This document shows, piece after piece, positions 20,189-29,908 of a stretch of DNA of 64,000 bases (its first letter is position 1; every line of letters begins with the position of its first letter). The notes under the pieces are model-generated. The model was not told where the DNA came from and ran no database searches. It was given only the letters and a program-made list of their open reading frames with translations. The position numbers and the translations under genes are program-made. The stretch is from Eledone cirrhosa (lineage: Eukaryota): assembly GCA_964016885.1 (NCBI GenBank), contig OZ024765.1:16616001-16680000 (forward strand), written 5' to 3'.

Positions 20189-20252
<64 letters not shown>

Positions 20253-20379
20253 AAAGTTTTATTTAAAATTGTTGGGTTACAACAAGTAAATATTTTATAA
20301 CTGATATAAAGCACTCAACAAGTTTTGGAGTAGATATACGATATTAAACAAATGGAAACTATATTTATAAAACCATATT

Positions 20380-20445
20380 TATTTCATTATACATATTTCG
20401 GGGATACCATATAAAAAATATAGCATGCCTTCTTCAGATAAAATA
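20380..20445 (-). ncRNA. Minimal type-I hammerhead (mirror copy of 20609-20674)
   Basis: Reverse strand: tattttat-CTGAAGA-stem II-GAAA-t(atgt)a-TA-atgaaata. Confidence 0.72.
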
Positions 20446-20608
20446 CAATATATAAGCAGTTTTATAAATAATTTTGACGTACCATAAATATTGATCAACT
20501 TCCATGTATCATAAATTGACGTACCATAAATATTGATCAACTTCTTACATGAAAGTTGATCAATATTTATGGTACGTCAAAATTATTTATAAAACTGCTT
20601 ATATATTG

Positions 20609-20674
20609 TATTTTATCTGAAGAAGGCATGCCATATTTTTAATATGGTATCCCCGAAATATGTATAATGAAATA
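20609..20674 (+). ncRNA. Minimal type-I hammerhead
   Basis: Stem I tattttat/atgaaata; CTGAAGA 20617-20623; stem II atgccatatt/aatatggtat; GAAA 20655-20658; AUA site; AATAAA overlaps stem I 3' strand. Confidence 0.75.
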
Positions 20675-20820
20675 AATATGGTTTTATAAATATAGTTTCC
20701 ATTTGTTTAATATCGTATATATATATATATATATATATATATGAGTTAAGGTATTTATTTTATGTCTTCATTCATAGTTCAAGTATCTCTTCATGTATAA
20801 ATGATTTGCTCTCTCATATA

Positions 20821-22899: not shown

Positions 22900-24300
22900 A
22901 ACACACACATACACACACAGACAGACACACATACACACACAGACAGACACACACACTCACACACACACACACAGACATACAGACATACACACACACAGAC
23001 GCACAGACAGACACACAAACACACACACATACAGACAGACACACACACACACACACAGACACACATACAAACTTACACACAGACACACATATGCACATGC
23101 ACGCAGACACACATATGCACACACACACACACACACATGCATGCACACACACACACATACATACACATACACTTAACAGACAAGATACAAAATAGATCCA
23201 CCCCTTCCACCATCTCAACCAACACCGCCAACACCACAACCACCACCACCGCAATCACAACTATCACTAGCACAACCATCACCACTACCACCACCACAAT
23301 CACATCAAAACCATCTCAACTACCACTAAGACCACCATCACCACCACCACTGCCAACATAACCAACATCACCAACACCATCACCAACATAACCAACACCA
23401 CCAACACCATCACCACTACCACCACCACAATGACATCAAAACCATCTCAACTACCACTAAGACCACCATCACCACCACCACTGCCAACATAACAACCAAC
23501 ACCACCAACACGATCACCACTACCACATCCCAACCACTACCACCATCACTACCACCACCACAATCACATCAAAACCATCTCAACTACCACTAACACCACC
23601 AGAAGCAGCACCACTGCCAACATAACAACCAACACCACCAACACCACCGCAATCACAACCACCACAACCAACACTAACACCACCACCACCAACACAGAAA
23701 ACACCACCATCATCATCACTGCAATCACCACTACCTCCACAATCACAACCACCACAACCAACACTAACACCATTATTAATGCCAACACCACCATCAACAA
23801 CACCACCACCACCAACAGCTTCCACAGCGACCACCACAGCCAACACCACCACCACCAACAACAACAACAACAACACAGCTTCCACAGCCACCACCATAGC
23901 CAACACCAACACCACCACCACCACCAACAACAACAACACAGCTTCCACAGCCAACACCACCAACAACACAGCTTCCACAGCCACCACCACAGCCAACAAC
24001 AACACCAACACCACCAACAACAACACAGCTTCCACAGCCAACACCACCACCAACAACAACACAGCTTCCACAGCCACCACCACAGCCAACACCACCACCA
24101 CCACCACCACCACCACCACCACCATAGCTTCCACAGCCACCACCACAGCCAACACCACCACAGCCAACACCACCACAGCCAACACCACCAACACCACCAA
24201 CACCACCACAGCTTCCACCACAGCCAACACCACCACCACCAACACAGCTTCCACAGCCACCACCACAGCCAACACCACCAACACCAGCACGACCATCATA
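22900..24300. repeat. (CA)/(CAGA) array followed by a CAC/CAA array with acagcttccacagcc spacers
   Basis: Directly visible. Confidence 0.9.
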
Positions 24301-24489
24301 ATTCTGACAACAGATTTAAATAACAAGAAATCACTCAGGGCTAATCTGAAGCCTGCGTGTGGATGCAAAAGCTTTTTTAGAAAAAAACGTAAATTTTCCT
24401 CAAGACATACAAACTCACCAATCTAACATATATATACATTTATACACACACACACACACATATATATATACATATATATATATATATAC

Positions 24490-24979
24490 TTAAGGTAAAT
24501 ATTGATGCAATTCAATTCAAGCACTCAACGTACTTATTCCACATAGGAGTGACGGAGTAAATATTGAATAAGGAAAAGCGAATTACTTTCAGATGTTCAA
24601 GTCCTTTAATAATAATGCTGTGATATATATTTCAATGGCGACAGTGGCGACACTGTTCCGTGCACCAGTGTCGCGACATCGTCAGACAGCTTGTTTTGGT
24701 TGAAAGGGGGGAACTGCCTAGGCAAATTTCGTTGAACTCTGCGGTAGCTAATGGTCAACTTCCTTCGGACCTGCGCCTGCGCAGACCGGTGGGGGTGAAT
24801 TGGTACTCACAAGGGAATGGACGAAGAACCCAAGAGCACACACTTCGTCCGTTCCCATGTCGATTCAATTTGGATTGCCTCGGAAACATAACCTTATTTA
24901 TTATGTAACAAGCTGTCTGATGATGTCGCGACACTGGTACACGGAACAGTGTGGCCACTGTCGCCATTGAAATATATAT
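24490..24979. mobile_element. Hammerhead fold-back cassette, tail on the left
   Basis: Arms 24623-24694 and 24907-24978 around a ~210-bp spacer; tail 24490-24616 adjoins a TA run. Confidence 0.85.
24617..24690 (-). ncRNA. Minimal type-I hammerhead with long stem II
   Basis: Reverse strand: gctgt-CTGACGA-tgtcgcgaca...tgtcgccatt-GAAA-t(atat)a-TC-acagc, then ATTAAA. Confidence 0.75.
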
Positions 24980-24983
24980 TATT

Positions 24984-25038
24984 ACTGCTATATATATTTC
25001 GGTGACAGCCATCTTTGGCTGTGACCTCTTCAGGCAGT
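24984..25038 (-). ncRNA. Canonical minimal type-I hammerhead (mirror copy of 25287-25341)
   Basis: Reverse complement matches 25287-25341. Confidence 0.85.
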
Positions 25039-25286
25039 CCGAATTGGTGTGGTAGAGGTGGGTACACATGTTGCCTTGCCTCAGAAAGAATTTCTATAGA
25101 CTTTTGACTCTCACAACTGACCAATGGGAGGAGGTGTCCTTTGACACTGAAATTTGTTTGTTCGAATTCATATGATTCCAGTTCCTCAGAGAAATAACAA
25201 CCCAACCAGGAACTGGGCATATCGGAGTATTGACGGAGTTAAACACCTCAACAACATGTGTACCCGTCTCTACCACCACAATTCGG

Positions 25287-25341
25287 ACTGCCTGAAGAGG
25301 TCACAGCCAAAGATGGCTGTCACCGAAATATATATAGCAGT
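25287..25341 (+). ncRNA. Canonical minimal type-I hammerhead
   Basis: actgc-CTGAAGA-ggt.c.acagcca(aaga)tggctgt.c.acc-GAAA-t(atat)a-TA^gcagt; predicted cut after 25336; AATAAA at 25342. Confidence 0.88.
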
Positions 25342-25609
25342 AATAAACGAAGCCAAATTTTAAATATTTGACTTATTTATTATATATCCTCTCTATATAT
25401 ATCTTTCTTTCTCTCTCTGTTGTTCTGCTCTTTCTCTTTCCTTCTCTATCTGTCTCTGTCTCCGTAACCCAACGGCTTATTTTAAAAATATCCTATACTA
25501 ACTTACCTAATAATTAAAGCTACAACTCCACTATCCGGGAGCTTAAAACAGTAATGGTTGCATTCTTTAAGGGTATGTCAATATTTATTTATAAAACTGT
25601 TCTATATTA

Positions 25610-25673
25610 TATTTTATCTGATGAAAGCACACCATAATTTAACTTGGTGTCCTTGACATATGTATAATGAAAT
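25610..25673 (+). pseudogene. Degenerate hammerhead of the 20.6/36.5 kb family (GAAA changed to GACA)
   Basis: tattttat-CTGATGA-aagcacacca..tggtgtcctt-GACA-tatgtata-atgaaata; same downstream tail as 20675-20715. Confidence 0.72.
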
Positions 25674-25771
25674 AAATATGGTTTTATAAATATAGTTTCC
25701 ATTTATTAATATTGTATATATATATATATATAGATATATATATATATATAGATATATAGATATATATATAG

Positions 25772-25902
<131 letters not shown>

Positions 25903-26264
25903 TATGACATTATATGTGTGTGTGTATTTGTTTGTGTTATCCAGGCTACATTGTTAAGGAAATCTGTCTGTATGATGGATGAAAGGACCAGAGAGATTAT
26001 TTGGTAATCCAAGTGTTGGATTGGATTAGAATGGATCGGAATCTCAGTAATATCTACAGAAACTCCTTGGCCAACACATAGAGGAGTGTAATTGAAGGCA
26101 GCACTCTCTAATGTTTCTTTAAAATTAGAATGAAATGGTTTGAAGAAATGTTATTGCAGCAGCTGGTGCAGTAATGCATCAGTTGCAACATTTGGTAATC
26201 AGAAAGAGGTGGTGGGTGTAAAAACCAAACTCGCTAGCTTCACTTTGGTATTTGTGCCACCTTT

Positions 26265-26940
26265 ACCTGTGGTCATGAATCTAGAGTAATTACCGAAAGA
26301 ATACAAATGGCCGAAATTGGGATTCCTCCAAAAGGTCTTTGCAGTAACGTTACTTGATAGAGTGCATAGCTCGGAGATCAGTGAGTCACTCCAGGTAGAG
26401 CCACTACTACTTTGAATTGAGAGATCACAGCTCCGATACTATGGACATGTGGTTAGAATGTCTCAAGAAAGAATTGCTGGACAGATCTGTAGCTTGGAGA
26501 TCAGAGAGTCAATCCAGGTAGAGCCACTACTTCTTTGAATTGAGAGATCACAGGCCTGATATTATGAATATGTGGTTAGGATGTCTCAGGAAAGAATTGC
26601 TGGAGATATTTGTAGATCAGAGATCAGTGACTCACTCCAGGTAGAGCCACTACTTCTTTGAATTGAGAGATCACAGCTCTGATACTCTGGACATGTGGTT
26701 AGAATGTAGAATGTCTCAGGAAAGAATCACTGGATAGATTTTATAGGCAAAACCGACAGGTAGGAGAGCCAGGGGTAGACCCCAAGCAGGATGGTTTTAT
26801 AACATCCATGAGCTTGGCTGGTCTTGCTTGGGGATCCAGCTGGATCATTTGGAGACAGTTGCTTCTGACAGGACCCACTGGAAGGAGTGTTTGAGGACTC
26901 TGCACCAATGACCCTTACAGGAATAAGTGGGAGAAGAAGA
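26265..26940 (+). mobile_element. Decayed RTE-type LINE 3' end with an internal ~122-bp triplication
   Basis: ggagatcagtgagtcactccaggtagagccactac...ttgaattgagagatcacag three times; encodes LLRIERSQLRYYGHVVRMSQERIA. Confidence 0.8.
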
Positions 26941-28360: not shown

Positions 28361-28794
28361 AGAGTAATGTGAATGCTAAAGGGTTGACGAGAGACTGGAG
28401 ATTTGGAGAAGAGATGAACACTGTCATGTATTTCTAAGGTGCAGAGAAATGCCATAATGAACAAAGTCATGTAGCTAGAGTAGCAACTCAATGACTGACT
28501 GGACTAGGTATAGGAACTACACTGATTGACCGATTGAAGGGAAGATAACTAGGATTAATTTTAAGAAAACTGGAGTTATTTTGGCCAGATATTTGAATTG
28601 GAACCTCAGAAATATTCTTCTGATGAGATATCTAGATAAATTATGATCCACATCTAACATCTTAGAGCCAACCAAAGTCAAATAGAACACAATCAGCCAA
28701 CAAACAGCAAGGTGTAATTGCAGATGGGTAGGATATATGTTAAGAACACAAGAGAGAGACTTGGCAATCCAAGCTTTGGATTAGGACCTCAGAT

Positions 28795-28974
28795 GGATTG
28801 GCAGTATCGGTAGAGGGTCGGACGCCATGCTTTCCAGCATAGTTACGTCCCTTTACGATCTGAGTTCAAATCCCGCCGAGGTTGACTTTGCCTTTCATAC
28901 TTACGGGGTCGATAAAATAAAGTACCAGTAATGCACTGGGTAATTGCTGGCCTTGTGCCTAAAGTAGAAACAAT
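28795..28974 (+). mobile_element. SINE family B
   Basis: ggattggcagtatcggtagagggtcggacgcc...aaagtagaaacaat. Confidence 0.9.
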
Positions 28975-29074: not shown

Positions 29075-29908
29075 GGAGTAGGATACTATAAATATTTGAA
29101 TTAATAAACCTGTTTTTAGATATATTTTTGCTAAATAATTACAGGGATGTTAAGAGTAATTACTTCAAATTTTCACAACAATCTGAGCATTAGTAAAGAT
29201 ACTATAAACATTTGAATTAACAAACCTGTTTATTGATATTTTCTGCTAATCATTACAGGATGTTAAGAGATGATACTACAAATTTATACAATATGTTGAT
29301 TAGTAAAGATACTATATATATTTGAATTAACAAACCTGTTTTTCCATATTTTCTGTTAAATCATAACAAGTTGTTAAGAGATAATTGTTTCTACTTTAGG
29401 CACAAGGCCAGCAATTACCCAGTACATTACTGGTACTTTATTTTATCGACCCTGTAAGGATGAAAGGCAAAGTCAACCTCGGCGGGATTTGAATTCAGAT
29501 CGTAAAGGGACGTAACTATGCTGGAAAGCATGGCGTCCGATCCTCTACCGATACTGCCAATCCACCGCCCCTTGTTAAGAGATATTACAAATTTTCCCAA
29601 CAATCTGTCCATTAGAAAAGATACAATAAATATTTGAATTAATAAACCTGTTTTTAGATATGCACATATGTTAAGAGATAACATAGCAAATTTTCACACT
29701 AATCTGTCCATTAGTAAGGATACAATAAATATTTTAATTAATAAACCTGTTTTTAGATATATTTTTGCTAAATAATTACAGGGATGTTAAGAGTAATTAC
29801 TTCAAATTTTCACAATAATCTCTCCATTAGTAAAGATACTATAGATATTTCAATTAACAAACCTGTTTTTAGATATTTCCTGCTAAATCATTATAGGATG
29901 TTAAGAGT
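29075..29908 (+). repeat. ~115-120-bp AT-rich minisatellite containing a SINE B insertion (29384-29571, minus)
   Basis: Unit agtaaagatactataaatatttgaattaataaacctgtttttagatat..gttaagag; SINE TSD ttgttaagagata at 29371-29383 and 29572-29584. Confidence 0.88.

Follow-up and report, generated by a model that had tools for sequence, protein, structure and literature searches.

Two repeat families, A and B, each arranged head to head with its 3' ends outward, are joined inside the stem III palindrome of a hammerhead ribozyme, and the 723 bp from 24618 to 25340 contain four type I hammerhead cores in the order minus-plus-minus-plus (Table 1). A and B are likely dead end-fragments of Penelope-like elements (PLEs), and their junction was probably produced by two neighbouring insertions followed by a deletion that joined them, which we regard as the best fit to the evidence below. 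The window, meaning the whole 64-kb stretch of DNA analysed, is animal-type and repeat-rich, with long TA microsatellites, reverse-transcriptase-like ORFs and tRNA-derived repeats.

Composition of the four-core locus

Table 1 Features of the composite locus, with positions in the window.
Feature	Position	Strand	Remarks
(TA)n/(CA)n microsatellite, left edge of element A	24428-24489		from sequence; tail of A stops here; likely target site of A
Family A left arm, inverted, 5'-truncated, complete type I hammerhead	24490-24695	-	core 24685 to 24622
Core A-	C3 at 24685	-	complete ribozyme
Filler at head-to-head inversion point of A	24696-24706		arm match stops at 24695
Family A right arm, half ribozyme	24707-24979	+	core from 24917 with the 5' strand of stem I, stem II, and stem III as far as U16.1
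Core A+	24917	+	half ribozyme
A/B junction	24969-25000		perfect 11-bp inverted repeat, 10-nt loop
Family B left arm, inverted, complete hammerhead	24979-25073	-	core 25033 to 24989; severed about 10 nt past cleavage site
Core B-	25033	-	complete ribozyme
Family B right arm, 5'-truncated, complete hammerhead	25074-25385	+	core 25292-25336; short 3' end about 44 nt past cut site
Core B+	25292	+	complete ribozyme
TA/TC simple-repeat spacer, B to C	25381-25466		from sequence
Family C arm, degenerate fifth core	25467-25714	+	core 25618-25666 (GAAA to GACA); ends at (TA)n; left boundary approximate

The core-only pattern was matched four times between 24490 and 25385, whereas 2000 dinucleotide shuffles averaged 0.0025 matches and never exceeded 1; the full descriptor, which includes stem I and stem II, was matched three times against none in 300 shuffles. 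The full descriptor misses A+ because the 3' strand of stem I and base 17 are absent, so the locus comprises three complete ribozymes and one half; A+ stops at U16.1 (24979), one base before base 17, and its cut site is lost. A preliminary description of this DNA had reported four cores in this alternating order over about 730 bp, and that count stands, at 723 bp and with at most one core in any shuffle. A further descriptor match on the minus strand at 37563 (37500-37575) is weak, has a different fold and was left out of the count. Rfam returned no hammerhead at gathering score in the 64-kb window, nor at E up to 10 at the locus, and exact pattern scans found no loci in viral contigs, metagenome contigs or prokaryote genomes.

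The arms of family A (24623-24695 and 24907-24979) are 96% complementary over 73 nt and those of family B (24979-25073 and 25252-25346) 96% complementary over 95 nt, with 3 differences in 73 and 4 in 95, respectively. Four public runs were compared with 24495-25700. We place the right arm of A at 24707-24979 and that of B at about 25074-25385, both 5'-truncated, because in two contigs from other organisms (X5 record 9 and X6 record 17) the match starts at 24707 and because depth climbs toward the 3' ends, as it does over the right arm of B, where contigs cover 25078-25373. The left arm of A carries a long 3' end, reaching 133 nt past the cut site and repeated in runs X1 and X7, and the right arm is without base 17, the 3' strand of stem I and the usual 3' end. 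Both A arms carry a variant, at 24664/24938, that most copies of the family lack, as would fit a single source RNA for the two. Upstream of the A+ core, a 14-bp GC-rich hairpin and further hairpins at 24813-24858 had no Rfam match.

At the junction the plus core runs straight into the inverted arm of the second family, as previously described, with the end of A+ now placed at 24979 instead of 24978. The 11-bp inverted repeat consists of both stem III palindromes with one T shared, and every TA letter in it is accounted for by the stem III of A, no extra TA being left over. A degenerate core of a third family, C, which the preliminary description did not include, lies at 25618 in an arm with 77-86% identity to three other C arms of the window.

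The complete PLE-type short-stem-III signature (CUGANGA...GAAA...UH, stem I and a palindromic stem III) is present in A-, B- and B+. Family B and two C arms (20437 and 20617) have a G10.1-C11.1 pair, and family A a U-U. Every one of the eight cores examined for stem II (20437, 20617, 24685, 24917, 25033, 25292, 25618 and 36500), drawn from three families whose stem sequences are unrelated, has a C-C mismatch at the fourth stem II position from the core. This mismatch is possibly a conserved tertiary or protein contact, and the supplementary alignments of PMC4209133 and PMC8557442 may already show it.

The view that the families are unrelated holds at the sequence level, with the upstream regions of A, B and C aligning like shuffles (108-402 of 500 shuffles reach the alignment score). 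The tails of A (24490-24570, minus) and C (20250-20335, minus) have an 11-nt and a 9-nt word in common at similar spacing, but the likeness is marginal, the score being reached in 26 of 500 and 95 of 2000 shuffles, and homology of these tails, considered from the 11-nt word, is unproven. A likeness between the A tail and the reverse of the B upstream region was rejected, as 46 of 500 shuffles reach its score.

Origin of the junction between families A and B

The distance from base 17 to the first TA run sorts six outer ends into two classes, of 133, 138 and 145 nt and of 44, 48 and 49 nt, and the junction arms are outliers at -1 nt (A+) and about 10 nt (B-) past the cut site. Each of these six outer ends lies directly against a TA run, in keeping with an AT-rich or (TA)n target, and a target-site duplication is indiscernible inside such microsatellite flanks. 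A tail at one end only is seen in family C at 20334-20721 (138 vs 49 nt), the inner ends of A and B being lost. The long end of B is never seen, and the amount lost from B is estimated from A and C. No displaced remainder of A or B was found near the junction.

Families A, B and C each occur at a high repeat level: contig depth summed over run X1 reaches 84,000-176,000 over the 3' region of A, 739,000 over the B core and 1.95 million over C, against 7-20 for a single contig; these sums do not represent copy numbers. Among the 21 joints listed of 37, 11 are within-family fold-backs in X1 with differing breakpoints, five in A (24608, 24624, 24625, 24632 and 24658) and six in B (25013, 25017, 25052, 25056, 25069 and 25071); each is a single contig of depth 8.5-19, with sides of 22-45 letters where given, and we read them as other loci. 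The joint 25109-25243 was left out because 25109 lies outside the mirrored arm. None of the 21 listed joints links A to B, so the same junction, which the preliminary description had proposed to search for at other loci, was not recovered among them; a contig carrying the junction of the window itself would match collinearly and not be scored as a joint. In the raw reads of X7, depth is 447 over the 3' region of A vs 436 over the end of the A core, and this equality implies that most A copies continue past stem III.

These observations bear on the deletion reading, under which two Penelope-like families would have inserted, 5'-truncated and side by side, in a TA microsatellite. Each insertion would probably have been made with two outward 3' ends, one with a long 'tail' and one short, around a variable centre. 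A later deletion ending in the stem III palindrome of A would then have joined A and B tail to tail, perhaps taking away about 45-60 nt from A, 34-130 nt from B and whatever TA run lay between them, and leaving the 11-bp hairpin. We favour a deletion because one event accounts for both short junction arms, and this reading is further supported by the presence of head-to-head arms in A, B and C alike, by the two classes of outer ends, by X1 fold-backs with other breakpoints and by the A copies that mostly run past stem III. Against it, microhomology at the junction amounts to only 1 nt, and the similar divergence of the A and B arms (3/73 and 4/95) would fit a single event too. The tail of family C, at about 89 nt, also counts against this explanation, being longer than the 30-40 bp given in the available portions of PMC8557442 and PMC3846280.

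Neither a contig or read bridging 24979 nor an undeleted allele was seen among the 24 pieces listed of 9197, and one X6 contig departs from the stretch exactly at 24979. The missing bridge, together with a best run that has 42% of the stretch's words, could reflect a collapse of the assembly in the middle of an AT-rich quasi-palindrome. We consider such a collapse very unlikely, since the runs could be from other individuals, repeat contigs are fragmented, most pieces fall outside those listed, and recognisable sequences meet cleanly at the junction.

The earlier proposal that the palindrome, or a collapsed TA run, served as target or microhomology survives in part: a break inside the palindrome is seen directly, but a clean nested insertion of B in A is unsupported, as the remainder of A is absent beyond B and the left end of B is atypical, and there is no surplus TA. 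A rival reading has B inserted directly in stem III of A after a PLE endonuclease cut, with B cDNA primed at an unusual internal site and the rest of A lost as a target-site deletion. The position of the break agrees with this, as does the preference for (TA)n targets described in the available text of PMC8557442, and according to the accessible part of PMC11167929 the purified PLE protein of the anole cleaves both strands of AT-rich DNA, its own pLTR included, and begins cDNA synthesis without homology to the target. Three of the five A joints among those listed for X1 also break at 24624-24632, one being marked 'between: not known'. Direct insertion nevertheless demands that two unusual things coincide, a B end of non-standard type and a lost A remainder, and 1174 of the 1505 X7 molecules over the 3' part of B reach 25356-25359, past the stop point of B-, although these molecules end at an AATT site and ends in this run are library-biased. 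On balance we judge it unlikely. The pile-ups of X7 molecule starts and ends (6 of 14, those listed) all fall on AATT and were set aside as library cut sites, not biology.

Another possibility, which we hold to be very unlikely, is that the template for the right arm of A was a self-cleaved RNA, primed on a TA target through its UA-rich 3' end; the arm would then never have had a 3' remainder, and B would have landed beside it afterwards. The end of A+ at U16.1, one base short of base 17, and the complementarity of stem III to (TA)n would suit such priming, but base 17 is itself absent, none of the six outer arms in the window ends at this point and the shortened B end would need a separate explanation. 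In addition, anole ribozyme mutants insert normally and no RNA-seq ends occur at the cut site in the part of PMC11167929 available.

Among the A joints listed for X1, those at 24624, 24625 and 24632 lie near stem III and two of them are firm; the firm joints keep the cleavage triplet, which points to the TA run and not to catalysis. A plus arm of family C at about 36630 carries a deletion from stem III through a 6-nt AATATA repeat, with loss of the 3' half of the ribozyme. The idea of the TA palindrome as a favoured spot draws slight support from this deletion and from the three of five listed A joints, a count that was made post hoc on a filtered list and in which the stem III of B lies too close to the arm end for scoring. 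The palindrome may be a recurrent breakpoint. A broader version, which we find quite unlikely, is that the UA palindrome used for PLE hammerhead dimers doubles as a (TA)n target or breakpoint in DNA, so that families repeatedly decapitate each other's ribozymes and the resulting half cores could act in trans on families with a compatible stem I.

Two further fold-backs of family C occur in the window. One, at 20334-20721 (region 20250-20715), consists of (TA)n, a long-tailed minus arm, a palindromic centre, a short-ended plus arm and (TA)n; its cores are at 20437 (minus) and 20617 (plus), its centre has a short duplication and its arms differ at 3 of 169 positions. The second, in the region 36312-36680, has head-to-head arms at 36409-36680 and includes the plus arm with the AATATA deletion.

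Predicted pairing among the cores

Cores of the same family are predicted to cofold as double hammerheads, the homodimers reaching -6.2 kcal/mol for A and -7.2 kcal/mol for B. The isolated A+ half core and a B core likewise form a full hybrid hammerhead in prediction, at about -4.2 vs -7.2 kcal/mol for B/B, with a 5-pair stem I including two G-U pairs and an 8-pair stem III. In read-through transcripts (24600-25050, minus; 24900-25350, plus) the hybrids become costly, at 13.3 kcal/mol (minus) and 24.7 kcal/mol (plus) of predicted equilibrium ensemble energy, because each transcript with two same-strand cores holds a 73- or 95-nt antisense arm between them. The minus hybrid keeps three of five stem I pairs, with A-C and C-A mismatches at both stem I ends, and once the junction hairpin is included A+ is predicted to pair with B via the antisense arm instead. 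The monomer ribozymes would cost 70.4 (A-), 62.6 (B+) and 5.0 kcal/mol (B-) in context, which leaves only B- within reach; it could be briefly active as a monomer through co-transcriptional folding.

The preliminary description had suggested that cores on one transcript pair in trans through their AUAUAU stem III and cleave cooperatively. The predicted costs of the hybrids lend this no support, and cooperative cleavage from read-through transcripts appears unlikely because the A+ cut site is lost and each transcript contains an antisense arm. In these models neighbouring cores would block, not help, each other. Any activity of the ribozymes would be expected from dimers within one family, in the RNA of the parent elements, and read-through RNA from this locus would mostly form long duplexes with no cooperative cleavage. 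We hold it to be highly unlikely that the composite is a functional or co-mobile unit whose A and B cores complement one another within a single transcript. The cofold of isolated A+ and B and the low cost of the B- monomer speak for it, but the costs of both hybrids, the mismatched stem I ends on the minus strand, the capture of A+ by the antisense arm and the absence of a second A-B junction among the 21 joints listed (of 37) all speak against it. PLE hammerhead dimers are reportedly the subject of Lunse et al. 2017. Among the titles listed on retrotransposon heterodimers or octopus PLE hammerheads, none dealt with cross-family hammerhead dimers, which leaves their absence unproven.

Relation to known elements and the surrounding window

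We infer A, B and C to be PLE-type remnants and do not class them as members; no parent element was found. No Pfam match to PLE reverse transcriptase or GIY-YIG was obtained in 131 of the window's 163 stop-to-stop peptides of at least 55 aa, including all seven at the locus, as is expected for short 5'-truncated ends. Three features of endonuclease-positive PLEs are present: a type I hammerhead in a terminal repeat, an inverted, 5'-truncated, head-to-head copy with a variable breakpoint, and an AT-rich or (TA)n target. Available excerpts of the PLE literature describe insertions with an inverted 5'-truncated copy beside the pLTR, a tail at one end and a (TA)n bias (PMC8557442), and head-to-head copies as the most frequent arrangement, along with a case of one Penelope lying within another and numerous deletions at microhomologies (PMC3846280). 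They also report ribozyme pairs on opposite strands 100-700 bp apart (PMC4209133) and insertion into or beside older copies (PMC6765202).

The closest likeness is to the endonuclease-positive groups Penelope/Poseidon, Neptune, Nematis and Hydra, which, as far as the excerpts of PMC8557442 and PMC3846280 extend, have the same head-to-head arms, variable centre and long and short ends, and the same (TA)n flanks, with several families piled up and a ribozyme near each 3' end. In contrast to the units in those excerpts, the present locus has no ORF, family C has the longer tail mentioned above, and the two families abut by their tails, each with a shortened end. The cores resemble the minimal, short-stem-III type I hammerheads of metazoan PLEs in the accessible text of PMC4209133, sharing the conserved core, a stem I of five pairs, a long stem II, a palindromic loop on stem III, a homodimer fold in prediction and pairs on opposite strands. 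They differ from the examples there in the U-U that replaces G10.1-C11.1 at the base of stem II in family A, and in the C-C mismatch of all eight cores; a U-U at this position is described for axolotl HHR_Amex2 (PMC7229834, in part). Non-LTR retrozymes, in the available portions of PMC7229834 and bioRxiv 10.64898/2026.07.22.740005, are likewise short non-coding repeats with type I hammerheads and a PLE pLTR link, but those form head-to-tail tandem arrays, whereas the arms described here are inverted. A retrozyme array was considered and rejected, as no direct repeat of A or B occurs in 23500-26500 or in the window.

The sequences are new and their kind already known, namely truncated PLE-type ends piled up in a microsatellite, and the A/B composite looks like ordinary transposon debris. 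The role of hammerheads in PLEs is still open in the accessible parts of PMC8557442 and PMC11167929. A single A/B locus cannot answer that question; families as abundant as these could be used to tally breaks near stem III and the cut site across the whole genome, a count relevant to that role.

Several other repeats lie in the window. The intervals 16683-18407 (+), 31838-34719 (-) and 52003-52923 (+) hold a pair of long, nearly identical ORF fragments resembling reverse transcriptase, together with a Tc1-like transposase (PF01498, PF13358); the long reverse-transcriptase-like ORFs are presumably of RTE type. A tRNA-headed repeat, likely a SINE, occurs at 6923-6980, 36695-37043, 38202-38548 and 44011-44074, with one inverted pair at 94% over 352 nt. 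Finally, a repeat of about 180 nt, without a hammerhead core, forms inverted pairs and clusters at 28794-28974, 29384-29564 and 53711-54340, with 97% identity over 181 nt.
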